The translations under genes and the position numbers were made by a program. The notes beneath the pieces are model-generated. The model did no database searches and was not told where the DNA came from. It saw only the letters and a program-made list of their open reading frames with translations. Source: an uncultured virus (IMG/VR IMGVR_UViG_3300048503_000037) (Duplodnaviria; Heunggongvirae; Uroviricota; Caudoviricetes). From it: a stretch of 64,000 bases of DNA. The stretch lies in IMG/VR virus record IMGVR_UViG_3300048503_000037; one strand, written 5' to 3'. This document shows positions 266 to 64,000 of the stretch, piece after piece (within the stretch, counting starts at the first letter, position 1; every line of letters begins with the position of its first letter).

Positions 266-274
266 TTTTTGCTG

Positions 275-12018: not shown

Positions 12019-12021
12019 GCA

Positions 12022-14874: not shown

Positions 14875-14877
14875 ACC

Positions 14878-38130: not shown

Positions 38131-39435
38131 TTAGTTGGAGAAGCTGGACTGGATGGTCAAGCCATATATAACTCCGCTAGTCCAGTTGTTCCTCGAAGCA
38201 TAGTTGACCGCATCGTACAGCCACGCATCCTTGAAGCTGGACGTGTTGCTGCCGGACGGCCGCTGGAACCAGATGCCCTCGATCTGCCCCGGCACGAACT
38301 GGGGAGCATCGTTGAAACGGCACCGGATCATGCTGGCGCGGTCCATGAAGTAGAGCTTGTCAACTGCGGCCACGGTGTCCAGAAGCCACTCGACGCCGGC
38401 AATCATCTCCATGGTGAACGTGTCGGGAACGCCATCGAACTTGGGGGCCTTGCCTGTCGGCATGGTCACCTGTTGGATAGCAAAGCCCAACTGGTTCCAC
38501 GACGCCCGCTGCGCGTTGTGCCCGTACCAGAAGTTCTTTGGGCGGTCGCGGTTGTACGTGGTGTTGCCCAGAGCCTGCTGCATCCTGGTGAGGAAGGTCT
38601 CGACGATGCCGAGAGTGAGCAGGGAATTGGCGTTGTAGGCCGGAGACTGCACATAAGACAGGCTGCGGTCCATGCCCAGATACTCGCCGGTCGTGTTGGG
38701 ACTGACGATGTACTGGATTCCGTTGAAGAACAGTGGAGAGAGGGACGCCACGTTGTTGACCATGACATAATCGCCAGCGACCACGCCCGCCGGAACGTTA
38801 TCCACGGTGATCTGGTTGCCGGTGCCAATACCGTTCTTGGGAGCGTCGACCACAACAGCCGAACCGCGCAGGGTGAAGTTGCCGTCTCCAGACATGAACT
38901 GTACGGTGTCCTGAATGTCAATCAGGCGGGAACCGAACGGGGTTGTGGCGAGAGCGATGGGATTGGCGCCGCCGCCGGCATAGGTCGCCGACACGGTGGC
39001 AATCTGGCCGGTGTTGAAGCCCTGGAGCGACTGATTGCGCTTCTTGGGCATCTTGGTGTGAGCGTCGGCAACGAGTTTGTCCACGGGGTTGACGGCGATT
39101 ACCGTCTTGCCGCTGGAGCCGATGCGCTTCTGGAGGTCGGTGCAGGTGATGGCCAGAAGGATCTCGACGGGGGTCATGATGCCCTCGTTGTACGCTCCGC
39201 CGGTGCCGGTGGGGTAGTTGCCGCCGTCGGTCGAACCTGCGCCGAAGCTGCCACCGTACTCGTACTGGAGCATGACGCGGAACTCTTGGAGGCTGGTGAT
39301 GGTCTGCGGGCCCATGGTCGAGAACCGGCGGTCCAGTTCGGACTCCATATTCTCAATGACTTCCTTGGGCGGCGTATAGGTTTGCAGCATGATGACGGAA
39401 TCAGCCGATGCTGTGGTGAAGTTGGGAGCTGCCAT
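38131..39435 (-). CDS. major capsid protein (probable)
   Basis: 434 aa after portal and scaffold; strong GAAGGAG RBS; YLGMDRS...Y motif. Confidence 0.75.
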   Translation of the reverse strand: MAAPNFTTASADSVIMLQTYTPPKEVIENMESELDRRFSTMGPQTITSLQEFRVMLQYEYGGSFGAGSTDGGNYPTGTGGAYNEGIMTPVEILLAITCTDLQKRIGSSGKTVIAVNPVDKLVADAHTKMPKKRNQSLQGFNTGQIATVSATYAGGGANPIALATTPFGSRLIDIQDTVQFMSGDGNFTLRGSAVVVDAPKNGIGTGNQITVDNVPAGVVAGDYVMVNNVASLSPLFFNGIQYIVSPNTTGEYLGMDRSLSYVQSPAYNANSLLTLGIVETFLTRMQQALGNTTYNRDRPKNFWYGHNAQRASWNQLGFAIQQVTMPTGKAPKFDGVPDTFTMEMIAGVEWLLDTVAAVDKLYFMDRASMIRCRFNDAPQFVPGQIEGIWFQRPSGSNTSSFKDAWLYDAVNYASRNNWTSGVIYGLTIQSSFSN

Positions 39436-39707
39436 GGTATACACTCCTTCGCGGACGCACAGAGGCGTACTCGCGGCGATGCTTGGTTAGGAGTGAGGGG
39501 TGCGCCTGCGGCCAATGCCGAGGGCGGCTGGTGGGCTATGAGGGCTTCTAGCCTTTCCCTGGTGAGCTTTCTCTCCTGCGCTGTCGGCGACAGCGTGTTA
39601 CGCCGATGGGAGTCTGCTCGCCGGTACTTTGGCCGTGCTCTCGGGTGCTGCTAAACTCTTGGGGCCTTTCGCATTTCGCTACTAAGCCCCCTCTTTGGGT
39701 TTTCTTG

Positions 39708-41456: not shown

Positions 41457-41561
41457 GGGTGGTGCTCCTTCAAAAGACTGCGAGAACTTGTCCCGTCAGG
41501 TTGATAACGAAAGTTTTTGGGGTCAAATGACCGGATAACGAAATTCGTCTAAGGGTGTGCG

Positions 41562-42047
41562 TTATCCAGCGAGCGGGTTGTCTGAGGTCGATCCGGGTTC
41601 TCCCTCGGCAAAGATTCCTTTCGGCGCGATGGTGATGCCTTCAGGAGCGGTGCCGACGCCGTGCTCAAACTCTCCTCCATCGGGATTCTCTGCGCCCTGC
41701 TGTCCGCCGGTCTGCTCGATCGCGTGCGGCGACTCGGGTGCGCCTGGCTCTACCGGGCCTTGGACCTCGTCGAGTTGCTCGGGGGCGGTGGGAGGTTCAG
41801 TTGGGGCGACCTCTCCCCATGGCTTCCAGCCGAACATGTTCCCCTCGACGAACGGCGCAACTGCCTTCTGGACCTGCGCAATGCCGCGCGTGGTGCCCTG
41901 CGCAAGCAACTGAGGACCGTTTACTGGATCTGCGTAGAGCAGAGTGAGAAGCTCGCCTTCGGCTGTTGCCTGGGACGCGAGCACGATGGCCGGAAGGGGC
42001 TTGCCGTTCCGGACGTAGATTATAGAGTCGTTGAACTGCTTTTGCAT
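41562..42047 (-). CDS. hypothetical protein
   Basis: GGGAG RBS; acidic tail. Confidence 0.6.
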   Translation of the reverse strand: MQKQFNDSIIYVRNGKPLPAIVLASQATAEGELLTLLYADPVNGPQLLAQGTTRGIAQVQKAVAPFVEGNMFGWKPWGEVAPTEPPTAPEQLDEVQGPVEPGAPESPHAIEQTGGQQGAENPDGGEFEHGVGTAPEGITIAPKGIFAEGEPGSTSDNPLAG

Positions 42048-42056
42048 GGATTCTCC

Positions 42057-44654
42057 CTACTGTGGTGAAAGGAATTTTGCAACTTCTGAAACCAATTGCT
42101 TTCCGGCTGAAACCTGCCCTGCGATGCTTGCGCTCGGTCCCAGCGGCGGCATGGAACTCTGCTTTGTGAGGTTACTAAGTCCCGTCATGGCATCCTGGAG
42201 CGCGGCGGCCTCCATCTGTTGAACTGTGGGGTTAGGCTGCGGCGGCGGTGGCTGCCCTTCCTTGGCGGCTTGCATTTTTAGTTTCTGCATATACCCAGAA
42301 ACTTGGCTCTGATAATCAAGCGCCAGCCGCTTGAAAGCTATTACATTCTGCCATCCAAGAGGATTCTGCGTCTTCACATCGCAGTTTTCTGCGCAAAATT
42401 GATCTATCGTTGGCAGCAGGATGCCGTAATCCTCAACCCACTTGTTGGGCGCGATCGAGGGTTGGAACATCGGCGAGCCGTCGTCCGGGTCCAGCATCTG
42501 CTGGCCGGTCTTGGGGTCAATCTTCGGCGTAGGCGGCGTCTGGAGCAGTCGGCGAATGTCTTGGAGGGTCTTCGACCTCTGCGCAGCGCCGGGCGCAACA
42601 GAGCCAGGCAGGCCCCAGTAATCGTTAAGCAGTTGCTGGTTGGCAGTCTCGTCTAGCCATGCGATCGCCGCGGGGTTCTGTTTCTCGGCCATCTCCATGA
42701 TGGTCTCGCACCATTGGCGCTTTTGCTCTGGCGTCATGGGCAGGCCTTCGTCTGTGTTGGCCTTCACCCTCACTCGCCCCTGCATCTCATCGAGATGAAC
42801 GTAGTTGTTCCGGAACTCCGAACCGTTCTCTTCGATCACCTTCCAGAGCGAACCGGTGTACGCCATGTTGACCTGCAGGCACTCGATAGCGTTCTGCCCA
42901 GCCCAGGCGTGCTCGTCTTTGATGGAGTCGTACACGTCGCCCAGCGGTCCCATGGCCTGGTCAAGCATCTGCTTCTGACCTTTGCCCGTCTCGACGCCGG
43001 GAGTAGTACCGGTGCCGGACACCTGCGGGGGAATGCCGGAGATGATCTGGCAATAGTTCCAGAGCCGGTCGAGATAGTTCATCAGGCCGGGGTCCATCTG
43101 GAACTGGAAATGATAGATAGCATTCGATAATGGCTGGGTTACACCCTCGCCGATGGACGGGGTTGGATTGAGCACCTCGCCGGTCAGCGGCTTTCCGCTC
43201 ATCTGTCGAATGTCGATGCGGCGGGTATCAACCAGCGTGATGCCGGTCGAGCAGCGCTCCATGTAGTCATCGAGGATATTGTTGATGGCATTGAAACGCT
43301 CGTTGAAGGGAACAACATTGTCAGCCACGCTGGGCGGATACAGGCCATACCCACGGTGGAGTTTACAGCAGGACCACTCTTTGACCAGCACGGCCGGTTC
43401 GCAGTTAAGAACCAGCGGGCCCCACATGCTCAACTTCAGACCGTAGGGGAACAACTGCTGCAGTTTCTGTACAAAGGCGTCGTCGTTCGAGATTCGGTAG
43501 TAGGAGTTTGGCTGCACCCAGACCAGAGAGTAAGTGCCGCGCGCCGCGAAGATGTCGGCGGTGACCGAGAATGAGGACGAGTAAACCATCGTCCGGACCA
43601 GCCGCTCGTAGCTGGCATTGTCATTGGTCGCGCTCTCGACGCCCTCGGTGATCTCGGCGGCCATGTCGGGGAACGTGGCGCGAATGTCCGATGCATCCAC
43701 TTCCCATTCAAGCGCCAGGAGCGGAACGTCGGCCAGGTACTCCTTGGTGGGGTCCGTGTCCACCTGGAGCGGGGAATAGATCGACCACTTCGGCAAACCG
43801 TTGGGCTTCTTCTTGGTGCCAACCTGCCCGATGCCGGTTGTGGACTCGCCGGGTTGGAAGTCTTGGGGATTGAGCGGTGCCTGGCACTTCGGGCACTTCA
43901 TAGCTCCGGACTGCGCTACGTCGGTTTCAGAGGAGTCCTGCCCGCAATTCAGGCAGTGGAAGTGGTCGTCTGAGATTTTGGCCTGGACCTCGCCAAACAC
44001 CGGCTCATCCTTGTAGCCGACCCAGACTCCATCGATCACAAACCGGGTCCACTTGAAGTAGACGCCATACAGGAAGAGATATTGCGACTCCAGCCCAAGC
44101 AAGCCCTTGACGGCGTTTGCTTCCTCGATGATCGAGATAGCCTCCTGCGCGGCCTTGGCAGTCGTCATGTCGGCCAGGTTCTCGGCGTTCTCGGGGCGAA
44201 TCACAACGGGCGGCACAGCGCGCGCCACGGCGGAAGCGAAGTTCCGCCGGCAGGTCTGGGTAATGTTGTTGACGTACTTTTCGAGGTAGCTGTAGTCGGA
44301 TTCCTGGTTGTTCTGGCGATACCACGCCACGGCGTCGAAGTAGGTCCGGCTAATTGGGTCCCAGCCAAGAATCTGCTTGCCCTTGTCATATTCGGTGGAC
44401 TTGAGCCAGTTGGGCATCTTCATGATGCGATCGGTAGCCCACTGTGTTCTGAATGGCTGGACGATCTCCCCTGAAACCCTGAGCGCTTCCTCCTTCGTGA
44501 GTCCGCCAAAGCGTCCAGGGGAGTCAGCATCGCCGCGCAGGGGGTTCTGCGGGCTGCGCTCGACGTTGGGCGTAGGCTGGTCCTGCTGTGCGCCCTGCTG
44601 GGGCTGCCCAGGCTGCATGGCGCTCATCTGGAGTACGGGAGGATTAGTTGCCAT
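42057..44654 (-). CDS. portal protein (P22-like size)
   Basis: 865 aa; YVNNI, D..TAKAA, ISGIPPQVSG, Gln/Pro-rich C-terminus; upstream of scaffold and capsid. Confidence 0.75.
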   Translation of the reverse strand: MATNPPVLQMSAMQPGQPQQGAQQDQPTPNVERSPQNPLRGDADSPGRFGGLTKEEALRVSGEIVQPFRTQWATDRIMKMPNWLKSTEYDKGKQILGWDPISRTYFDAVAWYRQNNQESDYSYLEKYVNNITQTCRRNFASAVARAVPPVVIRPENAENLADMTTAKAAQEAISIIEEANAVKGLLGLESQYLFLYGVYFKWTRFVIDGVWVGYKDEPVFGEVQAKISDDHFHCLNCGQDSSETDVAQSGAMKCPKCQAPLNPQDFQPGESTTGIGQVGTKKKPNGLPKWSIYSPLQVDTDPTKEYLADVPLLALEWEVDASDIRATFPDMAAEITEGVESATNDNASYERLVRTMVYSSSFSVTADIFAARGTYSLVWVQPNSYYRISNDDAFVQKLQQLFPYGLKLSMWGPLVLNCEPAVLVKEWSCCKLHRGYGLYPPSVADNVVPFNERFNAINNILDDYMERCSTGITLVDTRRIDIRQMSGKPLTGEVLNPTPSIGEGVTQPLSNAIYHFQFQMDPGLMNYLDRLWNYCQIISGIPPQVSGTGTTPGVETGKGQKQMLDQAMGPLGDVYDSIKDEHAWAGQNAIECLQVNMAYTGSLWKVIEENGSEFRNNYVHLDEMQGRVRVKANTDEGLPMTPEQKRQWCETIMEMAEKQNPAAIAWLDETANQQLLNDYWGLPGSVAPGAAQRSKTLQDIRRLLQTPPTPKIDPKTGQQMLDPDDGSPMFQPSIAPNKWVEDYGILLPTIDQFCAENCDVKTQNPLGWQNVIAFKRLALDYQSQVSGYMQKLKMQAAKEGQPPPPQPNPTVQQMEAAALQDAMTGLSNLTKQSSMPPLGPSASIAGQVSAGKQLVSEVAKFLSPQ

Positions 44655-48828: not shown

Positions 48829-49146
48829 TCACGGGTTCTGGCGCAATCTGCCCTGCTCGTCAACCGGCAGACCGGCTGCATTCGTGCCAGGGACCGGCGT
48901 CACGGTCGTTGTGACGGTCTGCTTGTTTTCCACCACCGTCACCTGCGACTCGGGCGGCAGCGGCGATTGCTTAAGGTAAGCCAGCACTGGCACCGCAAAA
49001 CCGAATAGCGCCAGCTTGCCGATGTTCGCCCAGCCGGTCGGCGTGAAGTTGAATACCGAGGGCGCGACAATCACGCCACCGAGGGCGCTTGATGCGCCGC
49101 CAATGCCAGCGGAGATCAGCGAGTACAGCCAGGGCTTCCAGTTCAT
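48829..49146 (-). CDS. holin-like two-TM protein
   Basis: two hydrophobic segments followed by YLKQSPLP. Confidence 0.55.
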   Translation of the reverse strand: MNWKPWLYSLISAGIGGASSALGGVIVAPSVFNFTPTGWANIGKLALFGFAVPVLAYLKQSPLPPESQVTVVENKQTVTTTVTPVPGTNAAGLPVDEQGRLRQNP

Positions 49147-50943: not shown

Positions 50944-51237
50944 TCAGCAGATAGACCAGGCTTTTCTCACCCGTAACGCAAGGGGTTGTTGTGACTGAAG
51001 TTGGAACTGCAACTGTGTTGTTAGCCGGGTGAATGAGAATAGGATCACCAGCACTGCATTGAGAGTGAGCAGCCCATAGGATTTCTGGATGCGAGGCACA
51101 AACATTGTCGGCTTAGATTCGGGATGGTTAAAGGCACAAGCTGCAAGGGGCGGTGCAACAGGTGCTGTTTGGGCAGGGGTAGATGCCTTGCCGAGAACAG
51201 CCACAAACAGAACCACGAGTAAAAGTACTTTTTTCAT
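50944..51237 (-). CDS. small signal-peptide/membrane protein
   Basis: TAAGGAGG RBS; MKKVLLLVVLFVAVLGKA. Confidence 0.5.
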   Translation of the reverse strand: MKKVLLLVVLFVAVLGKASTPAQTAPVAPPLAACAFNHPESKPTMFVPRIQKSYGLLTLNAVLVILFSFTRLTTQLQFQLQSQQPLALRVRKAWSIC

Positions 51238-51252
51238 TTTGTCCTCCTTATG

Positions 51253-54200
51253 TTATGGACAAGGTATTTCGGTGCCGACAAGAATGCCGCCGCTTAGCTG
51301 GAACCGTCTGCAACTTCCATCTACCGTGTCTTTCCAGATCACACCATTGATAGCTGAGTCGCTAAGAGTAATATCCCCCTGTGACCGTACCGCTGGTGCT
51401 GCTGCGCCGGAGATTGCTTTACCTTTGAGCGCAAACAGCATCAATCCACCATATCCGTGTATGGATAGGAGACAGATACGCCTTTTTGCACGCCCGCTGC
51501 ATAAGCCGGGGCTGATGACATTGACGTGTAAATCGAGGAGGTATCTGGCGTAGCAAATTTACCTAAGTATGTGAGGATACCACACTTATACTCCCATACG
51601 CTGCAATCAACCTATCGTTTGGTTGAGTCGTGGTCAAGGTTGGCGTCGTAGCTGTCCATTGGATTCCGGCACCAAGTGGATTGTATGTCGTCAACATTGC
51701 AACACCACTACCATCCACACAAGAGGATGATGCAGCCACGTTGGTGTACTCAGCTACGCTCATACCATTATCCCACAACCTTATATGCCGTTGCGGAAAC
51801 TGTAATTGTACCACCGTTGACATTGCAAGCAACTGCTGACCATACATTGTGGTCACCGATAGAGATTTACACTTGCTGCTGTTGTGTAGGTGTTCCCTAA
51901 ATTGTCTGTTACACCCGGTAATGCCCCCTCAGCATTTCCGCAATTTACAACGATGGCATTTCCAGCCGTCACCGGATTGGGGAGAGTCCCTGTACCATCC
52001 GAACTTCCCTGCACAAATACTGGCTGCAAAATGCCAGTTGTGTTCGCGCTGAAAATGGCGGCGGCGTTGTTAGCATCGGGAGCTACAACAGTCTGCGTGC
52101 CGTTAAACGTCTGGCTCTGATTGTTCAGCGCCAAGTCTACAGGATTGGTTAGAAGATTCAGTGCACCGTTGATTGAAACATTGTGCGCTGACAGGTTCGC
52201 ATCTGGCATCAGCGCGGTGGCTGCTGTCGAACCGGAGACTAGGATTTCTGTCTGTATGTTAGAGGGATCGTGGACCGTGCATACATCGCCGCTATCGCCG
52301 CTTAGGTAAGGTGTAAGCACTAAATTCTTGTCAAAACACAGCGCCGAGTCACCGGGCATATCCGTTACTAGTTGATCCACGTACGGAGCGTAAAATTGCA
52401 GAGCCGAAGACCGCCTTGGTATACTCGCTGGAAAAATTGTAGTTTGGCAGAGTGATCCCAAACGATGCCACAGGTCCGGTAACCCGCAGAGTTGTTAACT
52501 GTGCTGACTCGCATATTCAGCATTGCTGCCTGATCCGAGCTAACCACCTGCTGTATGTCGCCTAAACCAGGCTGGATGGTGTTTGAGATGGTGGCAGTGG
52601 AGATTGCAGCCTCTAACCGCGATACTCCAGGATCGGTAAGATGCAGGATTTCGCAATTGGTCGCGGGGTTGTCTGGATAGTCACAGAAAAAATACCTATT
52701 AGGATAAAAGGGTAACAATGCGCCTGGATCAGCAAAACTGTTCCAATAATATCCGCAAATGTTGCTTCCCGCTGTCTGACCGGGTTGTCCTGCTACTCCT
52801 GCTGTAGTGCAAACCGCTGGGTTGGAATTCAACGATGTCTTGGACTGTTGACTCAACCACGTGCTGATAGTCTGTGTGCAGTTAGCAGCTACAGGAGCAT
52901 AAACACTGCTTGGAACTGGTAGCAGTGTTTCCGCCGTGTAGAGATAACCCTTGGCGTGAACCTGTTGCATATACGAGAAAAGATTTGCTTCGGTGGTTGC
53001 CTGTGCGGTGCCGTTAAGACAATCCTGCGATCCAAGCTGTGATACAAGGATAGTGCTACCCGGCGTGACGCTTGGAAAGTTGGGATTCGTGGAAAAGGTG
53101 GCAGCTTCATTCGCGGCGCTATCTCCACCTGCTGATTTTTGCACGATGGTTACACCAGCATACAATGGATCATCGCGCTGCTGTTGCGGAAGCGCATATT
53201 TGCAGGACTCATATCCTGCCCCGGTCGAGCCATCGGGTACTCCTGTAGATGTAGCGTCAAAGGTGAATTGATTGGTTCCGGGCATCCCTGTAACTGTCGC
53301 CACAAAACCGTTGAGTGCTGTATAAGAGCCGCCAAAAGTAGAGAGCAGCAGCGCATTATTCACGACCTGATTGTTGGTGTTAGCCTCTGTGCATGTTGCG
53401 ATATGGCTTGAAATGGTGCAGCCTGAGATTGCATCTTCACTCAATGCTCCCACTTGGCAGCTACCCGCTACAATCTGCCGTGAGTCGCCCATGTCCACAA
53501 GCGTTTTTCCTGCCAGTGGGCTGACATACCCACCCCCGCCGCCAGTGCTTGCAATGCTGACTGTGCTTCCAACAGTGCTGACCGCTATGCCTGCCCCGGC
53601 TGCTATCGTTACTGCAGTGGTGACGCCGTTGACGCTGGGTACGCCCCCGCCGCCGCCAGAGCCGCAGTCGGAGCCTGTGCCCGTTACAATTCCATTGTCA
53701 TCCGTGTGTAAGCACTGATGCAGCCCAGAGCCAGCCGCCTGTTGAGGCAAGCTGATTTGGCTGTGATGGATGTCTACAATCTTGTTGCCAAAGCCGTCGT
53801 AGAGTCCATAGCCATCGTTGTTATACCCGTTCGGCTTGATAACACCGCCCAACTCAGGTGTAATTGTGTTGCTCTGGTTCAGGAAGTCAATCTCACCGGG
53901 AATTCCAGTTGCCGGGTTGAAGGTGATCGCTTCACCAAATTGGTTTTGAATCTGAGCCTGAATGTTCAGGTTCTGCACAGGCTGAGCGTTCACTGGGGCA
54001 GACGCGCCGATTTCGCTCCATGCCGTCCCGATTGGAGAACCGGCAGTGCCATAGGTAGATAGCCCTTGGAAATTCCACAAGGGCTGCAAGATTGGGCTTC
54101 CGCTCCAATACACCTTGTTGATGTTCGCCCAAGTGCCACCCGAGAACTCCATCGCGCCTTCCTGCACAGACTCTACACGGTATGGATCCGAAACGAGCGT

Positions 54201-56783
54201 GGTGCATCCTTCGCAATCGAAGTTGAATACAGGCGACGGCCCGAGAGACCCGTAAAAGATCGGACGGTACAAATACTTGCCGTTAAGGTTGGTGAGGGGT
54301 GATCCTCCAGCGTTGCGGTTATCGCGGGCGAGATTAAGATACCCAAAACCCGTGATGCCTTTGTAGCACATGGCGTTCGCGCCCTGCGGCGTGCTAAAGC
54401 TCGGTCCTGTCTGACGCTGTGCAATGCCCATTGGGGTAGCGCAAGTCTCAGGCATATCCACGGCGTCTCCGGTAAAGTCGGAGTGCCACACAGCCTTGTC
54501 AAACCAGGTGTCCAGGTTGGCGTACACCGAGTTATATGCCGAAGGCTCGACTACCATGTTGTCAAAACCTTCAAAATCGTTGATCCCACCCGCGCCAGCC
54601 GGGAAGTCTGAGCGGTGGCTCCATGTTCCACCATTAACGTAGGGAGCGCCTGAGTCAAACTCCAGATTGCTAACTTTCAGTCCAAGATCGGTGGACGCGC
54701 TCAAGATACCGATACCTGTTGCAAAAACCATGTCGTGCTGGTTTCCCTTGTTGGCGTTGTTGGTTACCCACAGCCCGATAAATCCAGAGTCTATTTCCAG
54801 ATTACCCACGTCCTCTCGGCTATACGGTCCTCCGAACATTGCTGATTGAGTTTGCAACACGCCTGGAGTAGGGGTATCAACAGTCACCCCATCCCACGTG
54901 CTAAAGACGGAGGCACCCTGTAGCGCTGACCCGGTCGGGGCGAACGTAGATGCTCCTGATACCAGAGCTACCTGAATCGGGATAGCCGGGGGGATAAGTG
55001 GGGATAGGTTGGTACACTGAGCATCAAACTTGGACGTGCCGGAATCCCAGCAAGCGAAGGGGCCAAAGACAATAGTTGGGGCAACAGAGCCGCATCCTGT
55101 CGGAGCGGTCGTCCACACGGCAGAGGAAATGCCGCCAGAGGAGTTCGATGAGGCTGTACCCACGCCGACGAAGTTGGTTCCAGCATAGCCGCCGACACTG
55201 GAGCAAGTTGAGCCGCCAGCATTGAAAGCGTGAATCGCAAGGAAATTAGTTTGGGAAGTTGGGTGTCCGCCGCCAGCATTGGTGATGGTCGGGGTTCCGC
55301 AGGTGCCGCCAGTCAACGAGCAGGTTGCAGCTTCCCCGTCTCCGCCAGTCGGAATTACGTTTGGAGCCACCGTGCCAGTTAGACCAAAACCGGCATAGAC
55401 GATTGTGACAGGGTTCTGCACGTGCCCGCTGGAGTCAGTTGTAACTGTAGCGAACTCACCACCGCACGGACCAGCGTAAATAGTTGGGCATCCAAGCCAG
55501 CTAGAAGCACTCTGTCCAAAATCCAGAATTTCTGTATTCGAGGCGGGGTAGTTTGTACCCCCGCCAGTTACGGTGCAAGCGTTAAGATGTCCGGATACAG
55601 TGGTACAAGAGACCGTCGCTCCAGAGCCACCTGCGTTAGTCTGATAATCGCCTGAGTCTTGAGCAAGACCACCATAGGCGTAGACAACATTTCCATTAGC
55701 GTCATGGTCATAGGTGGCAAGCATATAGTGGCCCGCCAGCCAAGCACAAGTTCCGCCGTTGCCCTGGACAACTGCTGTGTAACAAGCATGGGCAGCGGGG
55801 GTGTTATCCGTGCCCCAGATTCCGTACGCGGTGTCAGTCGTCTGGAACTGACGATCCACTGTAAAATGGGTGGCGTCAATAACCGACGCAATTTTGGCGG
55901 TGTTAGCGGTCGTGATGGAGTTCGCAACGAAAGGCAAGCCCCCCGTCCAAGCTCCTGAGTTTTTGTTAAATGAGATGTATTTGCCCACGTCGGCAGACGT
56001 GAAATTCCAAGAGTAACCGTCAAGTGAGCCTGTGACGTTAACAGCATATCCCCCGCTAGACCAGCCAAAGCTCATGTATCCAAAGGATGGCTGCAAGTCG
56101 GCGATACCACCGTAGCAAAGGATGTTGCTGTAGACCGATGCCGCCGCGCAGTTAAGCGTGGGTCCAAGCTGATTCCATTGATACGTGCCGGTAACGTTCG
56201 AACATTGGAATATTTCTGACGTATTGGACGTATAGAAAGTACCATTGTTTGCGATTGCCGAGCACGTCGCCGAGGGCGCTCCTACTCCAACAGACCACTG
56301 CGGAACCCCGAGGTTTGTCGCCGCGCCATAGGCCGTGGTCGCACCTGTGCCACCACCGGGTATCGAAATAACACCGCTGATTCCTCCTGACTGCACGAAG
56401 TTCGTCCCGTCGCTGACCACCGTGACAGTGGTGCCATTTGTAATCGTCACACCGGTTCCAGTCACGCCGATAACCTGAATAGACTGGCTTCCGGTGGTAG
56501 CGTTCTCGATGGTGAATTGGAAGCCTGCTGCCTGGGGGGCCACAAGACTTCGTGTTGCGGTGAGCGAGACCGAGCTAATCACTTTGATAAAACCGGCGCT
56601 CATTTCGGGATAGACCATCGTGTGATTTGCGTCAGATGTGAATGAAATAACTCCCGGATTGCGATTCGGGAAGACGCCGCCCGAGCCGATGTTGCCGGTC
56701 AATGGGATCTGCGGTGCTGGAACCTGCGCGAGGGCGCAAGGGGCCAAAATGGCGAGAATCAACAGTTTCGACAGATTTTTCAT
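51253..56783 (-). CDS. signal-peptide-bearing tailspike/adhesin with beta-helix-like and SGNH esterase domains; C-terminal part frame-broken (51853-52461, 51563-51856, 51253-51444)
   Basis: MKNLSKLLILAILAPCALA-Q; NILCYGGIAD..GTDNTPA; MGDS..G..G..LH; many Cys. Confidence 0.65.
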
Positions 56784-56784
56784 A

Positions 56785-58005
56785 TTAGCTAGCCACCTTT
56801 GGCGTGTACGTTCCGTAGAGCGGGTTGGTGCTCTGGTACAGGTACATCGTCACCGTCACGCCAAACTCATTGACGAATGTCACTGTAATGGGGGGATTGA
56901 AGGCAAAGGGGAAGCCGGTGCCGGCGTCGATGAAGGTGTGACTGCCTCCCAAGAGCAGCAGGTAGACGTTCTGCGCACTCGGCGTGTAAGGCCCGAAGGT
57001 CTGTCCAACCGTCTCGGCGCCCAGGCCGGCGCTCGGCAGGGCGTCGCTGGTGCTCAGCACGGCGGTTGTGTCGCTCGCGGTCACCGTTGAGGTCGCCCCG
57101 GCCGTCCCTACGCCGCCAAAGATGCGCGGCTGCCATGTGTACTGCTGGGTTGCGGTCTGCGTAGAAGCTCCAGTCGCCGTGAGTGTCACAGTCGTCGTTG
57201 CGATCGCGGAATGGTGGAAGCTGCCAACGATGGTGCCGGTTGTGAATGGAGAACTTAGGACTAGTGGCGAGTCAATCGAGTCAGTGTTGGTGATGTTGGC
57301 GCTCGACGGAACCCCGGTGTACGTCGCCACGCATGTGGGATTCGTGACCGTCTGCCCGAGTTCAAGCGATCCAGCGCAGCCGGTGAAGGAGTTGATAGTG
57401 AACCCACCGCCGCCACTGCATAAGTTCCCTTGATTGGTGTAAACAGCGCCATTCCAGATATAGGGAACCAGGCAAGCTGTGCGCGCATCGAGGATGCTTA
57501 TGTTGGTAATGCCGGTCGCCGCCGTAATAGTGCCGGTTGTTCCGCCCACCCGTGTCCAATCCGGCGTTAGAACGATCTCATACGGAAGGCCGTGGGCGTA
57601 GTTGATGGCTTCCTGGAGGCCGCCAGTGGCCGATGTGAGCGTGAATGTTTTGTGTGGATTGACTGGGTTCACGGTGATCGAGCAGCCGAAGCCTCCGACA
57701 GTCACCGCTGTAGGAACCACGATTTCAGAGTTGGCCGGAACCTGATCTTTGATGTAGATGGGGGTTCCAACGGCAAATACTGGGTTGAGCGGGATGCCGT
57801 TGGCGTTCGTTGTGCATAAAGAGGCCGCCGACCACGAGAACTGGCCTTGATTACCTTGAGGGATTGACCAGAGGCCGAAAGTGGAGGCGTAAAGCAGGCC
57901 TGCATCGTTGCCAGGGTTCCTGGTTGGTTGCCCAGGAGACTGCGCAGAGATCAACTGCCCTGCGCCCAACGCGATCATCGCAAGCCAAAGAATGAGTTTT
58001 TTCAT
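56785..58005 (-). CDS. secreted paralog C (shared N-domain plus Ig-like C-terminus)
   Basis: MKKLILWLAMIALGAGQLISA-Q; SATGGLQEAINYA. Confidence 0.75.
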   Translation of the reverse strand: MKKLILWLAMIALGAGQLISAQSPGQPTRNPGNDAGLLYASTFGLWSIPQGNQGQFSWSAASLCTTNANGIPLNPVFAVGTPIYIKDQVPANSEIVVPTAVTVGGFGCSITVNPVNPHKTFTLTSATGGLQEAINYAHGLPYEIVLTPDWTRVGGTTGTITAATGITNISILDARTACLVPYIWNGAVYTNQGNLCSGGGGFTINSFTGCAGSLELGQTVTNPTCVATYTGVPSSANITNTDSIDSPLVLSSPFTTGTIVGSFHHSAIATTTVTLTATGASTQTATQQYTWQPRIFGGVGTAGATSTVTASDTTAVLSTSDALPSAGLGAETVGQTFGPYTPSAQNVYLLLLGGSHTFIDAGTGFPFAFNPPITVTFVNEFGVTVTMYLYQSTNPLYGTYTPKVAS

Positions 58006-58009
58006 GGGG

Positions 58010-58813
58010 TCACTGGTAGGGGATGTAGTGAACGGTGCCGGCAATGTTTACCACCAGGCAGGCGGCAGGACTTGTGCCGACGGTGTTGCAGTTCGAGGCC
58101 GCGGCGGTTGTGCCGCCCAAACCGACCTGTGAGGCCGCTACTGTGGGAGCCGCGGCGGTGAGAACCACCGTATTGCTGGTTGGACTGATCAGCGTGGGGC
58201 TGGTCTGGAGAACCGTCTTGCCCGTTCCCGTGGTTCCTGCGGCCGGAGTGCCACCCGAGTACGGCACCAGCGTCGATGTGCGCGCATCCAGAATCGTGGT
58301 GTTGGTCCCGGCCGTGGCGCTGGTAATCATCCCGGTTGTGCCGCCCATGGTCTGCCAGTCTGGAGTGAGGACCACGACATAGTGAGCCGAGCCGGCGAAG
58401 TTCAGCGCTTCCTGGAGGCCGAGCGTCCCAGATTGCAGGTAGTAGTTGGAGTGGGGATGGGTAGCCGGCAAAGAAACCGAGCAGCCGGAGCCAAGATAGC
58501 TAGCCAGGGTCGGCGTCACCGTCTCGGTGTTGCTCGGAACGCCAAGATCCACGATGGTGATGGGCGCGCTGGTGGAGTAGAGCGGGAACACCAGGCCGCC
58601 GGACGTGCCGTAGCACTGGCCGGGATTATCCCAGCGCGTGCCCTGCGGGGTCGGTGAGGCGGTCCAGTGGGCGAAGTTGGCAGCGTAGAGCAATCCTGCG
58701 AGGTTGGCTGGGCCGTTGGCCGGGCTCGTCACGCTGGCTGTTGCGCTGGTGGTTTGGGCAGCAAGCGCCAGTGGCAGAGCCAGAAACGCTGCAAGCAATA
58801 CTAATCTTTTCAT
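58010..58813 (-). CDS. secreted paralog B (shared N-domain plus fibre-tip-like C-terminus)
   Basis: MKRLVLLAAFLALPLALAA-Q; SGTLGLQEALNFA; ends LVVNIAGTVHYIPYQ. Confidence 0.75.
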   Translation of the reverse strand: MKRLVLLAAFLALPLALAAQTTSATASVTSPANGPANLAGLLYAANFAHWTASPTPQGTRWDNPGQCYGTSGGLVFPLYSTSAPITIVDLGVPSNTETVTPTLASYLGSGCSVSLPATHPHSNYYLQSGTLGLQEALNFAGSAHYVVVLTPDWQTMGGTTGMITSATAGTNTTILDARTSTLVPYSGGTPAAGTTGTGKTVLQTSPTLISPTSNTVVLTAAAPTVAASQVGLGGTTAAASNCNTVGTSPAACLVVNIAGTVHYIPYQ

Positions 58814-58834
58814 GGCGATGTTGCTCCTTTGCAT

Positions 58835-58867
58835 AAAAGAAGGCGGCCAGTGCATATTCTGGCCGCC
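58835..58867 (-). terminator. intrinsic terminator after paralog A
   Basis: GGCGGCCAG-N8-CTGGCCGCC-TTCTTTT on the minus strand. Confidence 0.75.
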
Positions 58868-58893
58868 CGGTGCATTCGATGGCTTGGTTGAGC

Positions 58894-59811
58894 TTACTTG
58901 CAGTTCCAGCTAAAGCTGTACGCTGTGGTGCTGGCCAGCGCCGAGGCCACAGAGACCGTCATAATGCCGTGGCTTGAGTAGGAGTTCGTCACGGTCAGGG
59001 TTGGCGGTGCTGTCGCTCCAGTGCTCGTGACCGTGCAAGAGCCTGGTGCAGCTTGGAACTGGCCGCTGTTCGCCCAAGTCTCGGTGAATACAGTGCCAGT
59101 GGTCGCGGTGCCGGTGGTGAATGAATAGGTGCCAGAGAGAGCGGTGCCTGTCGCAACTTTGCTGGTCGCGGTGCCTGCGGCCGCGCCTGTCGCCGCGGTC
59201 GGGGCGGTGTTGACCCATGTTCCAGAGGCATACGCCGATCCATTCCAGACGTAGTAGGTCGGCCCGAGAGTCGTGACGTCTTCGACTATCACCGACGCAT
59301 CACCCTTGGCCGCGCCGAGAATGGTAGCCGCCGTGGTCCCAGGGATCTGGTTGGCGATCGTCCACCAGTTCTTATCCAAGAGCAAAAGCGCAGGCCATGC
59401 GCCCTGCCCGTCGAGAGCGTTGATGCCCTCTTGGAGTCCGGCAGTGCCTGATTTCATCTGGAAGGTGTAGTGATTGTGGCTTGGCGCTACGGTCGCACCG
59501 CAACTGCCGGCGGTATTCACGATGGCCGATGGCGTCACAACCTCCGAGTTGCTGGAGTTCGAGTCCGCAATCAGCACAGGCGCATTGGTGTTGAACACGA
59601 AGAAGTTGAGGTTTTGCCCTTGGCTGTTGCAGAGGCTGCGGCCCTGGAAGATGTAGGTGTTGGGGCTCTGCTGGTTGATCGACCAGAGTTGGAAGCTGGT
59701 GGCGTAGTACCAGGGCGCGGTGAACGGGGTAACGGCGGTTTGCGCTGACACTGGGGCCGCGCAGATGGCGGCAAGGATCAGCGCGACGATGGAGAACAAT
59801 GCTTTGCGCAT
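58894..59811 (-). CDS. secreted paralog A (candidate major subunit)
   Basis: MRKALFSIVALILAAICAAPVSA-Q; SGTAGLQEGINAL; AAGGAG RBS. Confidence 0.75.
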   Translation of the reverse strand: MRKALFSIVALILAAICAAPVSAQTAVTPFTAPWYYATSFQLWSINQQSPNTYIFQGRSLCNSQGQNLNFFVFNTNAPVLIADSNSSNSEVVTPSAIVNTAGSCGATVAPSHNHYTFQMKSGTAGLQEGINALDGQGAWPALLLLDKNWWTIANQIPGTTAATILGAAKGDASVIVEDVTTLGPTYYVWNGSAYASGTWVNTAPTAATGAAAGTATSKVATGTALSGTYSFTTGTATTGTVFTETWANSGQFQAAPGSCTVTSTGATAPPTLTVTNSYSSHGIMTVSVASALASTTAYSFSWNCK

Positions 59812-59840
59812 GGCTGTGAAACTCCTTTGATGGTTGATGG

Positions 59841-61535
59841 TTAGAGTGGAAGCTCGATCCACGATAGAAGCGTCGGGGTCGGCGTAGTTCCGTAGTTGGC
59901 GAGCGTTGCCCCGTAACTAGCGCCAGCGGGCACGAGGAACGTCACTCCAGCATTACTCGGGCCTGCCGCATCACAGTTGTAGACTCCGGCTGAGATTACA
60001 TTGACCGCAGCACTGACACCTGTGACGACAAACCCGCTACCAACGCAATTGGTTGCCTCTTGCACGGTGATCTCAACAAGCAGCGGTACTGTGCCTGCCG
60101 TGTATGAGCTGCCGAGCGCCCGAGAGCCAGTTACGTTGGTCTGGGTGACTGCCAGCGCGCACGGGACCGTAGCGGGGGCAATGTTCCCAGCGCCGTCATA
60201 GGTTGCGCAGTTCGTCGATGCGCCTGGAGTTGCAGTCTCAGTAGGAATCAGATTGCCTGTTCCTGGAGTATTCAGGTCAATCGTGGTTCTCGCTGGGGAT
60301 GCAGAATCGGTAGCCGTGAACCGCTGAGTGAAGTTAAGGGTCGGCCGCTGTGTCTGCGCGACACCGTTGGCTGCCACGGTTTGATAGAAGAGACTTGGCG
60401 CTCCGGTCAGAATCGAGTAGGGCAGCGTCGGCGAATCCACATAAGCCGTGCCATTGCCAAGCAACACGTGATTGAGCGGTGCCAGACCGTTGAACAGATA
60501 GCCGGTGGCCGCGTTGACCGCGCCATTGATCCCGGCTCCCTCTACGTCCACACCCCAGCCAGGGAAGTTGGTGCCGACGCCGAACTTGCCCACGCCGGTG
60601 ACGTTGTAGCCGCCGAAGTTCAGCGGGCCTGAGATGCTCTGCTGTCCGTGGTTGGCTGGCTGAGACAGGATTGGCACAGGGTAGAACACCACGCCATGAT
60701 AGTAAGGCAGTCCAGTCGACAGGTTGTAAGTGCTGCCCGGTCCAAGCAGTTGCCACTGCATGGGGTAGTTGGGAACTGGATTGCCGTTGACCGTGACCAT
60801 CGACACGTTGTAGCCGGTGCCGGTCGGCCATACTGCATCGTTGGCCACCACTTGGCACAGCGTGGTGTTGGTCGAGGCGGGACTGGAGCCAGAGGTCAAT
60901 GCGGTGGACTGGACGAAAGAGGCCGTCCCAGTTGTTTGACCTTGCAGTGTCTCAGTCCCGCTCGAAGTGGAGATGAATACATCCATCCCAACTGCCAATG
61001 CCGGTACGCCGCTCGATGGCGGGTTGACCACGAGTGTACCGGTGGCACCAAGAGTTGTTGCGGTCTCGGGACTGACCAGAGTCACGTGGCCGGCGGCGTC
61101 ATACCACTCGTAAACCGTGTAGTAGACGCCAGAAGGGAGCGATCCTCCCCCGCTGGTGGTGTTGACCGTCGCTGTTTGGGGGTTCTGGATGCCGACGACA
61201 GAGCCATCGGTCGATGTCGCGCACGTGTTGACCGTGGCGAGGTTGACTCCACATCCTGCGATGAGGCCTTGCTGGCTCGGGGTCAGCGTGAGGATGGAGT
61301 TTGAGGAGGGAATGCCGTTGGCGCTGCGGAGGTTGCCGGTCAGCGTTACCTGGGCATTGGTGATGCAGGTTTGGCTATGCGCCACGATAGTCAACATGCA
61401 GAGGATGATTGGGAGCAACTTGAGCGGCATGAGGTAGTAAGCATTAGCCAGCACCGAGAAGAACAGACGGAAGCCGGGCGGCACGGTCTTAAGTTGGTCG
61501 CCTTGCGCTCTCGATAGCGCTATGGGCGCTGTCAT
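59841..61535 (-). CDS. tail-fibre-like protein with signal peptide (start 61535 or 61430)
   Basis: LKLLPIILCMLTIVAHS-Q; C-terminal NVTGSRALGSSYT...FLVPAGASY...WIEL fibre-tip-like motif. Confidence 0.65.
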   Translation of the reverse strand: MTAPIALSRAQGDQLKTVPPGFRLFFSVLANAYYLMPLKLLPIILCMLTIVAHSQTCITNAQVTLTGNLRSANGIPSSNSILTLTPSQQGLIAGCGVNLATVNTCATSTDGSVVGIQNPQTATVNTTSGGGSLPSGVYYTVYEWYDAAGHVTLVSPETATTLGATGTLVVNPPSSGVPALAVGMDVFISTSSGTETLQGQTTGTASFVQSTALTSGSSPASTNTTLCQVVANDAVWPTGTGYNVSMVTVNGNPVPNYPMQWQLLGPGSTYNLSTGLPYYHGVVFYPVPILSQPANHGQQSISGPLNFGGYNVTGVGKFGVGTNFPGWGVDVEGAGINGAVNAATGYLFNGLAPLNHVLLGNGTAYVDSPTLPYSILTGAPSLFYQTVAANGVAQTQRPTLNFTQRFTATDSASPARTTIDLNTPGTGNLIPTETATPGASTNCATYDGAGNIAPATVPCALAVTQTNVTGSRALGSSYTAGTVPLLVEITVQEATNCVGSGFVVTGVSAAVNVISAGVYNCDAAGPSNAGVTFLVPAGASYGATLANYGTTPTPTLLSWIELPL

Positions 61536-63071
61536 CTGACACTCCCTAGAGGCTCGTCCGACTCGCACATCTCGCAGGTCGTATGCTTGCGTGCGGCGCG
61601 AAGTCTCACAACATCCCCGCTTAAATCGCCGTCGGAAAGCTCAATATGAACCTCCAGGCAACTGTGGCGCGTGGCTTCTGGGATCTCCATACTGCGGGCA
61701 CTCTGCGATTGCCACTGCTTGAGAAATCGGCGAATCTCAGGCTCGACCATCTCCGGGTGACCCACAATCTCGACGATGAGGTATGCACGGCTGACGGGAC
61801 TGGTCACTGTACTGGTGCTCCCACCACGGCCAGTTTGGGCTGGTTGGCCTTCGCAATGGCGTCTTGCTCGGCTTCCAGTTTCTTCTGAGCCTCGGCCGCC
61901 TCGTGTTCGCGCCGCACCGCTTCCTGGTGCTGGAACTCGCTGATCGCGTTCTTGGTCTCGTCCTGGCGGAGCTGGAACTCGGTTTGCAGCATGTTGAGAA
62001 TGCTGCCGTGGACCTGGATGGAGTAGCCGCGCAGGCGCTTGCCGATGGCGATGTACTCAGTTTGGAGGTTGTTGATTGCGGTGGCGACTGGCACGTTGGC
62101 GATGGCGCCGACGCGCTCCTGTAGGCTTTCGGCCTGGTTCTTGCTATTCATGCTTTCCTTTCGATGCCAAGATTGGCGTTGTTGAGATCGTCTGACTGCC
62201 AGTAGGAGCTCCCGCCGACCGTCACAATGAGGTCGCCACGCTTGACGGTTGATGGCAGCTTGCGGTTGAGCAGCAGCGTATTGCCGTCGTCAACCCCCAT
62301 CACCATAGCCCGGCAGCGCACCTTGCGCCCATTCGGGCTGATAATCAACACGTGGTCGCCAACTGAGATCATGACCGCGTTACCTCAGCCTGGCAACTAT
62401 GTAGCCTTCAAGCGTCGTGTCGGATGGGAGATCTGCTCGCGCACCGTCTGCGTCTGTCTTGGACGTGTACCACCCAATCAACTCGACGCCAGTGATCCCC
62501 TCAGTTGGTGACCACGTTTGTTTTAGCAACAACCATACTCTAATCATGGCCGCAACCTGATCCTTTCGGTTTGGTACGTCAGCCGCTGGCCTTCTTCTCC
62601 GCGGCCATTGGGCTTGCACTCAAGATTACACGCCGGCCCGTCGGGGTAGTGCCACATCCACGTCGGCTTGAGCTGCTTCTCGCGGTACTCGCGCGCCGCT
62701 GGGCCCAACAAGATGCGGCCGCAGTTTGGGCACAGCCGAAACTCCACTGCAAACATGGTTCCTGAGCCCCCTGCTTCCCGGTCCAACAAAATCAAACTCT
62801 TGGCAGCTCGCCGGCTTAGGCACCAGAACTCTTGCGGCGTGAACGTCAACCCCGCCGGCAGGTCGTGGGGCGAGAAGGTGTCCAAGTCCGCCGCAGTTGC
62901 AGTCAAGGTCACGAACCACACTCGGCGGCAGACCGGCACCGACCGATACGCCTTCATCCGGCGTCGCCGAACCCAGGCACTGCGCTTCTCCAGCACCGAT
63001 TCCCGCTTGGGGTCGTCCCAATCCTTGTACCTCAAATCTGCCATGCTGGTGGTCCATCGAACCCTCTGCAA
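61532..63071 (-). CDS. run of small hypothetical genes (61532-61807, 61804-62151, 62148-62372, ~62380-62568, ~62544-63044)
   Basis: coupled minus-strand ORFs; some boundaries uncertain. Confidence 0.5.
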
Positions 63072-63156
63072 TCGCTCTCAGGTCAACGTAGAGGCTTGTT
63101 TTTGCCAATTTTTGTGTCTTTGGCATGATTCTTTGCAAGTGCCTCAAAAGTGAGCA

Positions 63157-63532
63157 CTATACAAGTTGCATCACCTTAGCGCCTTGTGGCCCACCGCTCG
63201 GCACACCCTTCCATATCCGCCCATACACGTACACCGCCACGTTGCGCTGGCTCCCGGCCACGTACTTCAATATCCCGTCGCGCACCAGCTTCTCAACCTC
63301 AGCCCGCGTATGGTGACGATGTGTGCACCTGGGACCGTGGCAAGGCTGGTCAACGCCCCACCGCTCCAGCATGGCGCCATGGTGACCATCCAGCACACAC
63401 ACACGCCGCAGTTCTTTGCTCGCCGGCGGCCGCTGCAATCCCTTGGGTTGTTTGGGTGCGTATCTGAAAACTCGGCCCCGAATGTGCGTCTCGACCCTGT
63501 TTCCGGTCTGAATCGTCTCGAAATGAGCCAAG
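63157..63532 (-). CDS. hypothetical protein, first gene after the leftward promoter
   Basis: 3' part of ORF 63157..63996; likely TTG start after AAGAGG. Confidence 0.45.
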
Positions 63533-63702
63533 TAGCCTCTTTTCAGATACCTACGGCTTAATCTGGCCTTTTCGGTCCATGCTATTGAGCCGCATGGCAG
63601 GCAGCAGTCGAGGGCATCGGGCCAGATGGGCGGTGACGCCTCGCGCTCACGATCGGGCGGGGAGTGGCTGTGTGCTTCCCCCTCGTTCCCCCACGATTTC
63701 AG

Positions 63703-63731
63703 ACGATAGAACAGATTGTTCGTGGTGTCAA
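63703..63731 (-). promoter_or_regulatory. sigma70 promoter driving the minus arm
   Basis: TTGACA-17-TATCGT with an AT-rich upstream stretch. Confidence 0.6.
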
Positions 63732-64000
63732 AGTTTATTTTAGCAGCACGCAAGGCGCGGTTTGCATACCCAGCGGCTAAAGCGCGCGGCGAGATCGCTG
63801 TAAAAAACTTCATCGCACAGCAGCAGCTGAAGATTGTTTTGGAGTAACCTCCGCCGAGCCGCATCCACGGTACGTGGAGCGTGAGGTTGGTAACCTCGGG
63901 CGGTACGTAACCCGCCAGAAAGCCTCCCATGAGATATAGCCCCGCCTGGGACCTCTCTACGATACCGCGCGAGCTGGTCCGCGCCGAATACGCCAAGAGC

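Follow-up and report, generated by a model that had tools for sequence, protein, structure and literature searches.

A minus-strand cassette of candidate fibre/tailspike-type proteins with predicted Sec signal peptides in an uncultured tailed phage

INTRODUCTION

Textbook assembly of tailed phages is wholly cytoplasmic, and we know of no fibre or spike that carries a signal peptide or folds outside the cytoplasm. Here we analyse a stretch of 64,000 nucleotides from an uncultured virus of the Caudoviricetes (IMG/VR record IMGVR_UViG_3300048503_000037; hereafter the window). Its minus strand carries a cassette of six genes, g575, g322, g281, g419, g1471 and g97a, each of whose products is predicted to start with a type I signal peptide of the general secretory (Sec) pathway; these leaders are conserved in relatives and covary with paired cysteines. 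We tentatively explain the cassette as fibre- or tailspike-type proteins that are made as Sec pre-proteins, exported, and joined to particles at lysis, an explanation to which we give slightly less than an even chance.

Podovirus fibres and tailspike depolymerases, such as P22 gp9, the K1 lyase of Klebsiella phage NTUH-K2044-K1-1 (PDB 7w1c) and Gp53-like proteins, resemble the cassette in several respects. They combine a conserved N-terminal domain with swapped distal modules, their families (Gp53-like_C, K1-lyase_C, Beta_helix and pectate-lyase-like) recur in cassette relatives, and, like them, the cassette genes appear to lie among late structural genes. The cassette proteins differ in having predicted Sec leaders and paired Cys and in matching no known family. 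Virion proteins with Sec-type leaders are familiar from the filamentous phage Ff, whose g3p and g8p carry them; the disulfides of g3p form in the periplasm, and the particles are assembled at the membrane and extruded. In contrast, the window phage is tailed, with terminase and probable portal and coat genes.

The nearest precedent for leader-bearing virion proteins is probably provided by Cellulophaga phage phi18:3 (KC821620). Three of its consecutive large proteins, gp085, gp086 and gp087 (547, 785 and 559 amino acids), are annotated in GenBank as "structural protein" with experimental tandem mass spectrometry (MS/MS) proteomics, a status known from the record annotation alone. Like the cassette proteins, they appear to bear N-terminal leaders, here ending in ...SA↓Q or ...NA↓Q; their N-termini read MKNKITIIMILMSISFGYS-Q, MKKTIYILSILLLTISGVSA↓Q and MKHTFSIVLFFILSIGLNA↓Q, respectively (↓, predicted cleavage site). 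By the signal-peptide heuristic described below, gp086 and gp087 pass, gp085 falls below the cut-off with a score of 4.06, and none of the nine other MS/MS-annotated structural proteins that were checked passes. Much like the cassette, the three genes are followed downstream by small genes, a glycosyl hydrolase gene and more structural genes, whereas the host belongs to the Bacteroidota and the proteins contain few Cys (0, 1 and 3).

Two further systems bear comparison. Phages of Porphyromonas gingivalis (proposed family Nixviridae) have leader-bearing genes that obey the Q-rule of Bacteroidetes, with Gln directly after the cleavage site, and that the authors read as adapted to the host secretion system, favouring a role in modification of the host outer membrane (PMC10367356). 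They belong to a host of another phylum, and the available part of that paper neither describes the genes as fibres or spikes nor makes an argument from Cys pairs or synteny. WceF of Pantoea stewartii is an exported trimeric β-helix with a tailspike fold and a P22-tailspike-like N-terminal domain that, according to the accessible text, cuts the host's own exopolysaccharide; it is a single chromosomal bacterial gene in an exopolysaccharide cluster and has a twin-arginine translocation (Tat) leader (PMC7949094). The cassette instead comprises several phage genes with predicted Sec leaders, in which no twin arginine is seen, and its proteins show no Pfam match to the P22-type head-binding domain. 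In our literature search, no paper was found on signal peptides of tail fibres or spikes of Acidobacteria phages.

RESULTS

Predicted leaders of the cassette genes

Signal peptides were scored with an n/h/c-region heuristic written for this analysis, in place of a trained predictor. It looks for a basic n-region, an uncharged h-region of 8–16 residues, and small residues at −3/−1 within a few residues after it; a score of at least 5 counts as a pass. Five of the 69 greedy open reading frames (ORFs) of the whole window pass, and these are five consecutive large minus-strand genes spanning 52368–61430; g97a, scored separately, passes as well. All six leaders consist of a basic n-region, a hydrophobic h-region and a small-residue c-region, in agreement with a first-pass annotation that had been made from the letters alone and had noted six basic-hydrophobic leaders. 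Five of them end, as it had also stated, in Ala or Ser followed by Gln (g575, g322, g281, g419 and g1471), while g97a reads ...VLGKA and then STPAQ. With the cut-off set slightly higher, 36 of the 309 ORFs in 400 kb of a related host chromosome pass, so that five adjacent leader genes are far from what chance would give.

A strong ribosome-binding site stands right before the leader ATG in g322, g281 and g97a; g419 is without an obvious one. The start of g575 is ambiguous between 61430 and 61535, the latter being the first-pass choice and giving a leader of 54 residues. Read by eye, the cassette leaders contain neither a lipobox ([LVI][ASTVI][GAS]C) nor the twin arginine of a Tat signal, and the residue before the leader-internal Cys is L in g575, I in g322 and P in g1471.

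The mature parts of the five large genes consist of 40–42% Thr, Ser, Gly and Asn and of only 3.6–8.6% Lys, Arg, Asp and Glu. Their mature Cys counts (Table 1) are all even, whereas the Cys content of the 17 other minus-strand ORFs is 0.77%. The initial description of the mature chains as rich in Thr, Gly and Ser, with Cys, thus holds.

The window's copies of g1471 and g97a are interrupted. In the nearest record (G001), a single open frame runs from the g1471 homolog through all three pieces that follow it in the window, to ~51256, and over this 3′ end the window and G001 differ by at least three frame changes, and their DNA alignment, of 3.6 kb, has 31 gap positions. The leaderless ORFs at 51563–52359 were considered as separate genes or as remnants of a swap, and both possibilities were ruled out by the continuous frame in G001, which makes them frame-shifted pieces of g1471. 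Homologs of g97a form five clusters of 109–110 residues with the same leader and 2 Cys, and the rest of the window protein can be read in another frame to 50903. The gap between g322 and g281 holds a terminator-like, GC-rich hairpin of 10 pairs (8 GC) with a T run behind it; the promoter and terminator scan of the window was, overall, not above chance.

Conservation of the leaders in relatives

Leaders are kept in the homologs of g575, of g1471 and of the N-domain, a region of ~170 N-terminal residues common to the paralogs g322, g281 and g419. The g575 family has 332 relatives at E ≤ 0.001, and among the 120 listed at least 95 pass the heuristic; the 25 that fail are mostly N-truncated or have plain leaders for which the heuristic is too strict. 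The mature start is conserved in this family as ...H(C/S)Q(T/S)C(V/I)TN. Of the nine relatives of g1471, all eight with an N-terminus have a leader ending in Q, and the ninth is N-truncated.

The N-domain was scanned for in viral contigs, which gave 67 loci and 56 non-redundant viral rows, and in one genome per prokaryote species, which gave 71 loci. A leader is present in 34 of the 56 viral rows and absent from 22; 61 of the 71 genomic rows pass the heuristic, and several of the remainder are obvious misses. A profile search of 1.84 billion representatives returned 1083 clusters at E ≤ 0.001. When the best 150 of these were scored, 100 passed and ~16 more were visible misses; the 100 leader-bearing representatives have Gln at +1 in 73 cases and an even Cys count in 93. 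Members of the family range from 165 to 2019 residues and differ in their C-terminal parts. In a profile comparison of the g575 family with the N-domain family the leader alone aligns, indicating that the leader is a shared add-on and not a sign of shared ancestry.

Many Acidobacteriaceae genomes carry a very similar leader-bearing N-domain protein of ~1570 residues whose leader ends in ...VQA↓QNIEGQ. It comes after a g575-like gene and before ORFs of ~809 and ~322 residues and an endolysin; this is a widespread type of prophage.

Covariation of leaders and cysteines

If proteins are exported to an oxidising compartment, leader and Cys pair are expected to be gained and lost together. Among the 56 viral N-domain rows, 33 of the 34 leader forms and none of the 22 leaderless ones have Cys in the column of g419 C108; for the column of g419 C64 the corresponding counts are 24 of 34 and 0 of 22. 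Mature Cys content in the family is 1.71% in leader forms versus 0.43% in leaderless forms. The leaderless members, of ~300 residues, begin exactly at the motif M..F.G.Y.A..FAYG, which in the other members follows the leader.

In a maximum-likelihood tree of the N-domain, the three paralogs of the window fall into a fully supported clade of 24 rows, all with leaders. The other clade is mixed, with 22 leaderless and 10 leader rows, and ~3 changes of leader state are needed over the tree. The leader rows inside the mixed clade again carry the Cys. This covariation is the strongest single argument that the leaders would be used for real export. Together with the conservation of the leaders, it makes export and disulfide folding of the cassette proteins, both suggested in the first-pass annotation, well supported on evolutionary grounds.

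The leaderless, Cys-poor family of ~300 residues is found between the large terminase and portal genes, after two small ORFs, at more than 14 loci. It has no Pfam or PHROG match.

Host range and the residue after the cleavage site

All 71 genomic N-domain loci are titled Acidobacteriota (Acidobacteriaceae, Terriglobales, Terriglobia, Bryobacteraceae, Sulfotelmatobacter and Terracidiphilus). Their surroundings are prophage-like, with a primosomal protein, DnaB, a sigma factor and an endolysin (phrog_315), and many include portal and coat homologs. In a 400-kb stretch of an Acidobacteriaceae chromosome that lies far from the prophage (G002:C7:1000001-1400000), 13 of 36 predicted leaders are followed by Gln at +1, against a Gln background of 4%. 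The ending in Ala or Ser followed by Gln therefore seems to be a habit of the host itself and not a peculiarity of the phage. Glu_cyclase_2, a glutaminyl cyclase of the papaya type, is matched in three of three such genomes and also in 3 of 14 control genomes.

The pattern resembles the Bacteroidetes Q-rule, in that Gln stands at +1 in five of the six cassette leaders, in 73 of 100 family representatives and in 13 of 36 host leaders; it differs in that the host lineage here is Acidobacteriota and not Bacteroidetes. According to the abstract of the Q-rule paper, the rule does not hold for the whole Fibrobacteres–Chlorobi–Bacteroidetes group or for related phyla, and the main text as available nowhere uses the word Acidobacteria (PMC5837995). 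A Q-rule-like habit is thus seen in an Acidobacteriaceae chromosome, whereas the published rule is described as specific to Bacteroidetes.

Fibre and tailspike features of the relatives

The fibre/tailspike nature of the cassette is partly supported, by way of its relatives. Among g575 homologs that are alike over 60–80% of their length, P0028 ends in Gp53-like_C, "putative tail fiber" (3.3e-16), and matches tail-fibre PHROGs, and P0044 ends in Beta_helix plus K1-lyase_C. For g1471, the homolog P0004 matches tail-fibre phrog_11419 at 1.1e-19 and P0001 has a sub-threshold match to a GDSL esterase. PF12708 or Beta_helix occurs in 6 of 44 large N-domain proteins, with single cases of Laminin_G_3, of DUF2961 and of a sub-threshold collagen repeat, and the N-domain protein of locus L088 matches tail-spike phrog_1171. 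A protein atlas places g575 with unnamed viral clusters only, and neither g1471 nor g419 had a tblastn match among GenBank phages.

Whole modules distinguish phages that are otherwise near-identical. In G001, unrelated sequence (L004:7149-8160) stands in place of the C-terminal third of g575 (59846–60528), between flanks that are 96–98% identical, which appears to be a recent module swap. Similarly, P0001 and P0002 are 98–99% identical to the middle of g1471 and have other ends. Such differences look like the way in which receptor-binding proteins evolve. Within the cassette itself, the three paralogs show the same anatomy, their common N-terminal residues being joined to variable distal parts.

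An AlphaFold2 model of g419 was built with 56 aligned rows. Residues 31–195 are modelled with a predicted local distance difference test score of ~90, and the C-terminal half is of low confidence. Foldseek searches of the model against PDB and BFVD returned nothing at E ≤ 0.001, and a wide VIA fold search gave no match with Z ≥ 8; residues 45–127 alone were effectively covered by these searches. The fold comparison proposed at first pass, carried out on the g419 model only, thus yielded a confident domain and no clear fold match.

Position among structural genes

Homologs of the probable portal, scaffold and coat proteins of the window occur in that order in L088 and L024. The coat homolog in L024 matches a "major head protein" PHROG, and the portal equivalent in L040, a weak pairwise match to the window protein, matches a portal PHROG; the probable portal and coat proteins have no sequence match in PDB. 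In the genomic N-domain loci, the upstream gene of ~520 residues, considered as a terminase, proved to be a g575 homolog. Across 125 N-domain loci, a g575-like gene lies just upstream in 51, a portal homolog lies ≤10 kb downstream on the same strand in 51, and scaffold and coat homologs are also present in 19. In L024, the gene next after the coat gene encodes a leader-bearing β-helix member. The 300-residue member of the leaderless lineage sits between terminase and portal, and in L036 this slot is taken by a leader-bearing member. On this synteny, the cassette would be part of the late structural array. It lies ~6.3 kb upstream of the probable portal gene, with small ORFs between, so that the nearest structural gene is not ~15 kb away, the distance first given to the tail genes.

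The first-pass annotation had further held that all fibre-like genes carry leaders and that no leaderless fibre is evident near the tail genes. Both statements are put in doubt by a leaderless protein of 1021 residues and the 351-residue ORF after it, which have a low-charge composition and may be a conventional fibre or nozzle. The larger protein has weak PHROG matches to head-decoration and virion structural families, and the atlas puts it near unnamed viral clusters; in one of these, 42% of the members carry CBM_5_12. The last 260 residues of the larger protein match, at 43% identity, the C-terminal end of an N-domain protein with a leader in L102; a homolog of the 351-residue ORF follows there too. 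Neither statement therefore holds as worded, and one distal module appears to be used both with and without export.

A lysis region had been placed downstream of the cassette. It is not confirmed: the window has holin-like small membrane ORFs there, and Pfam and PHROG scans found no endolysin in the window. One of these ORFs, of 105 residues, has two hydrophobic stretches and is kept beside cassettes in L010, L071 and L072 (44–61% identity over 64 residues).

The genome of the window phage

By its gene content and by the joint seen in G001, the window is a nearly whole tailed-phage genome. G001 is a 58-kb IMG/VR contig that has 71% of sampled words in common with the window. It bridges the window's end to its start through ~2 kb (window 1–1271 and 62227–64000 against L004:1-4965), so the genome is probably circular or permuted and ~66 kb long. 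Short tandem repeats occur in this joint region of G001, where ORFs read MLQAMLQA... and AAHAAAHA.... A run of minus-strand genes extends from ~64000 down to the terminase subunits (Table 1). No integrase was seen in the window. The large terminase subunit is less than 60% identical to all 599 GenBank phage records matched, the best-ranked being Pelagibacter and Sinorhizobium phages at 28–32%. A GroEL-like chaperonin gene (Cpn60_TCP1 at 1.9e-65, phrog_5725 at 8e-145) runs towards the large terminase gene from the opposite strand. A frameshift splits DnaB into ORFs of 76 and 321 residues.

Table 1 Features of the window. Positions are nucleotides of the 64,000-nucleotide stretch; aa, amino acids; RBS, ribosome-binding site; ↓, predicted cleavage site.
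Feature	Position	Strand	Description
g575	59841-61430	-	First cassette gene; 529 aa from ATG 61430; predicted leader MPLKLLPIILCMLTIVAHS↓Q (...TIVAHS↓Q; mature start QTC); 8 mature Cys
g322	58894-59811	-	ATG 59811, RBS AAGGAG; 305 aa; predicted leader ...AAPVSA↓Q; common N-terminal domain with Cys pair; 4 Cys
Terminator-like hairpin	58841-58868	-	Between g322 and g281
g281	58010-58813	-	ATG 58813, RBS AAGGAG; 267 aa; predicted leader ...LALAA↓Q; common N-terminal domain with Cys pair; 4 Cys
g419	56785-58005	-	ATG 58005; 406 aa; predicted leader ...QLISA↓Q; common N-terminal domain; 6 Cys
g1471	52368-56783	-	ATG 56783; 1471-aa ORF; predicted leader MKNLSKLLILAILAPCALA↓Q (...PCALA↓Q); 34 Cys; shortened in the window
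Broken 3′ end of g1471	51853-52359, 51563-51847, 51253-51444	-	Leaderless ORF pieces in three frames
g97a	50944-51237	-	ATG 51237, RBS AAGGAGG; predicted leader MKKVLLLVVLFVAVLGKA↓STPAQ; frameshifted near 51055, other frame ends at 50903
Holin-like ORF	48829-49146	-	105 aa
Probable portal, scaffold and coat	38131-44654	-	Proteins of 865, 582 and 437 aa
Leaderless 1021-aa protein and following 351-aa ORF	31177-35323 (1021-aa protein, 32258-35323)	-	Candidate fibre or nozzle proteins
Small terminase subunit	18718-19332	-	phrog_51 at 1.2e-5
Large terminase subunit	17173-18714	-	phrog_979 at 2.9e-30
GroEL-like chaperonin	15323-17083	+	
DnaB	12022-13380	+	Split by a frameshift
Replication and recombination genes	135-17083	+	DUF1376 primosomal protein, YqaJ/RecE, RecT, SbcC-like ATPase, cold-shock protein, HNH, Dam, DnaB, GroEL-like chaperonin

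DISCUSSION

The explanation that we favour, tentatively, is that the cassette encodes proteins for host recognition and sugar cutting that are made as Sec pre-proteins. The Sec pathway would carry these into the periplasm of a host from the Acidobacteriota (Terriglobia), where the leaders would be cut off before Gln and disulfides would stabilise the proteins. The mature proteins would meet the particles, built in the cytoplasm, only once the holin opens the inner membrane at lysis, and attachment would then be the last step of assembly, through the conserved N-terminal domain in the case of g322, g281 and g419. Some of the cassette proteins may also act as free enzymes on envelope polysaccharide before release. 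Late attachment is mechanistically plausible, since P22-type spikes are the final parts to join the particle and can also be joined to it in vitro, and since periplasm and cytoplasm mix through holin lesions while the outer membrane still stands. What would follow export we only infer: attachment to the particle is favoured because of the anchor-plus-variable anatomy, the leaderless counterparts in structural slots and the Cellulophaga precedent.

The main rival holds that the proteins are exported and never become parts of the virion. They would be free periplasmic or secreted lectins, or depolymerases or esterases acting on host capsule, slime or lipopolysaccharide, either late in infection, easing release and keeping progeny from sticking to debris, or in the lysogen, excluding other phages. 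We take this to be a serious contender that is probably wrong. Five to six genes and ~10 kb of a ~66-kb genome are much for accessory enzymes, and the build of the proteins, with a constant N-terminal domain and distal parts that are freely exchanged, is that of receptor-binding proteins anchored to the particle. The leaders and Cys pairs, which point to export, suit free enzymes nevertheless, as do the enzyme modules of relatives (pectate-lyase-like β-helix, GDSL/SGNH, K1-lyase_C and DUF2961) and the window's own leaderless fibre candidates. Published parallels exist in WceF, a Tat-exported enzyme of tailspike fold that cuts stewartan (PMC7949094, in its accessible text), and in the P. gingivalis phages, with five leader-bearing genes of unknown function that the available text reads as surface modifiers (PMC10367356). 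Against free enzymes, leaderless members of the same domain family lie between terminase and portal genes, leader-bearing members are embedded among portal and coat genes, and the Cellulophaga leader proteins are annotated as detected in particles.

The second option of the first-pass annotation was a phage-encoded surface structure on the host; the proteins would build such a structure or a decoy, the outer membrane or vesicles bearing fibres or a coat. The export signals and the fibre-like, low-charge composition rich in Thr, Ser and Gly are in line with this, and relatives in prophages of many Acidobacteriaceae genomes make expression in the lysogen conceivable. We nonetheless consider it improbable: the C-termini are not hydrophobic and show no PEP-CTERM-like tail, no lipobox is present and no other C-terminal sorting or anchoring signal is visible, the cassette belongs to the same strand run as the structural genes, and no secretion or anchoring partner is encoded beside it.

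Still less probable is an uncleaved membrane anchor that tethers fibres to the inner membrane until lysis. Small residues at −3/−1 followed by Gln are kept across families that otherwise have nothing in common, and the preference for Gln at +1 (73 of 100 leader-bearing representatives) is that of the host's exported proteins, although g575 relatives with long n-regions and long hydrophobic stretches would fit an anchor. Finally, the view that the leaders are start-codon artefacts or chance hydrophobic N-termini of ordinary cytoplasmic fibres is close to refuted: it can draw on the ambiguous start of g575, the lack of an obvious ribosome-binding site in g419 and the assembly-type frameshifts of the window, but the five leaders found among 69 ORFs are all adjacent, three genes have strong ribosome-binding sites right before the leader ATG, leaders are kept in hundreds of relatives though their sequence drifts, and they are coupled to Cys pairs.

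Several observations weigh against particle attachment of exported fibres as we propose it. The cassette proteins of the window have no match in Pfam, PHROGs or NCBIfam, and with this the fibre-tip motifs that had been reported in their C-termini are not borne out; sequence searches of PDB with g1471, g575 and the profiles A1 and A3 likewise gave no match. The best fold match of the small β-barrel of g419 (residues 45–126) is residues 140–229 of 7w1c, with Z 7.4 and a root-mean-square deviation of 2.4 over 70 aligned residues, and generic barrels score likewise. The heuristic overlooked some obvious leaders and lets some membrane proteins through. Leaderless candidates elsewhere in the window mean that the cassette need not be the phage's only host-recognition gear. 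As for the precedent, kinship of the window phage to phi18:3 was considered and rejected, no window protein having sequence similarity to it, and MS/MS of purified particles can also detect co-purifying envelope proteins. Furthermore, three conserved genes are frameshifted in the window (DnaB, the 3′ end of g1471, and g97a), so this copy may be either decaying or carrying assembly indels.

Taken more widely, the data allow a proposal that we hold more loosely, as a possible account, namely two-compartment assembly in tailed phages of Terriglobia and apparently of Bacteroidota. Heads and tails would be built in the cytoplasm, whereas the whole host-recognition set, from fibres, spikes and depolymerases to a small partner protein, would pass through Sec, be cut before Gln, become disulfide-bonded in the periplasm and be joined to the rest only after the holin has breached the inner membrane. 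Lineages would then have switched between cytoplasmic, Cys-free and exported, Cys-paired forms of one domain family. What the window adds is the leader–Cys covariation in one domain family with two forms, the host-wide Gln signature and the synteny counts.

If this account is true, assembly of these phages would include a post-holin step, their fibres could be disulfide-stabilised for harsh soils, and depolymerases would be kept apart from cytoplasmic substrates. Leader-bearing phage proteins may be wrongly catalogued as contamination from the host or as secreted enzymes of the "auxiliary metabolic" kind, and these cassettes would have to be taken into account in predicting the host range of the phages of soil Acidobacteria, which are abundant and uncultured. 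The pairs of leader-bearing, Cys-containing and leaderless, Cys-free members within one domain family would offer a ready natural experiment.

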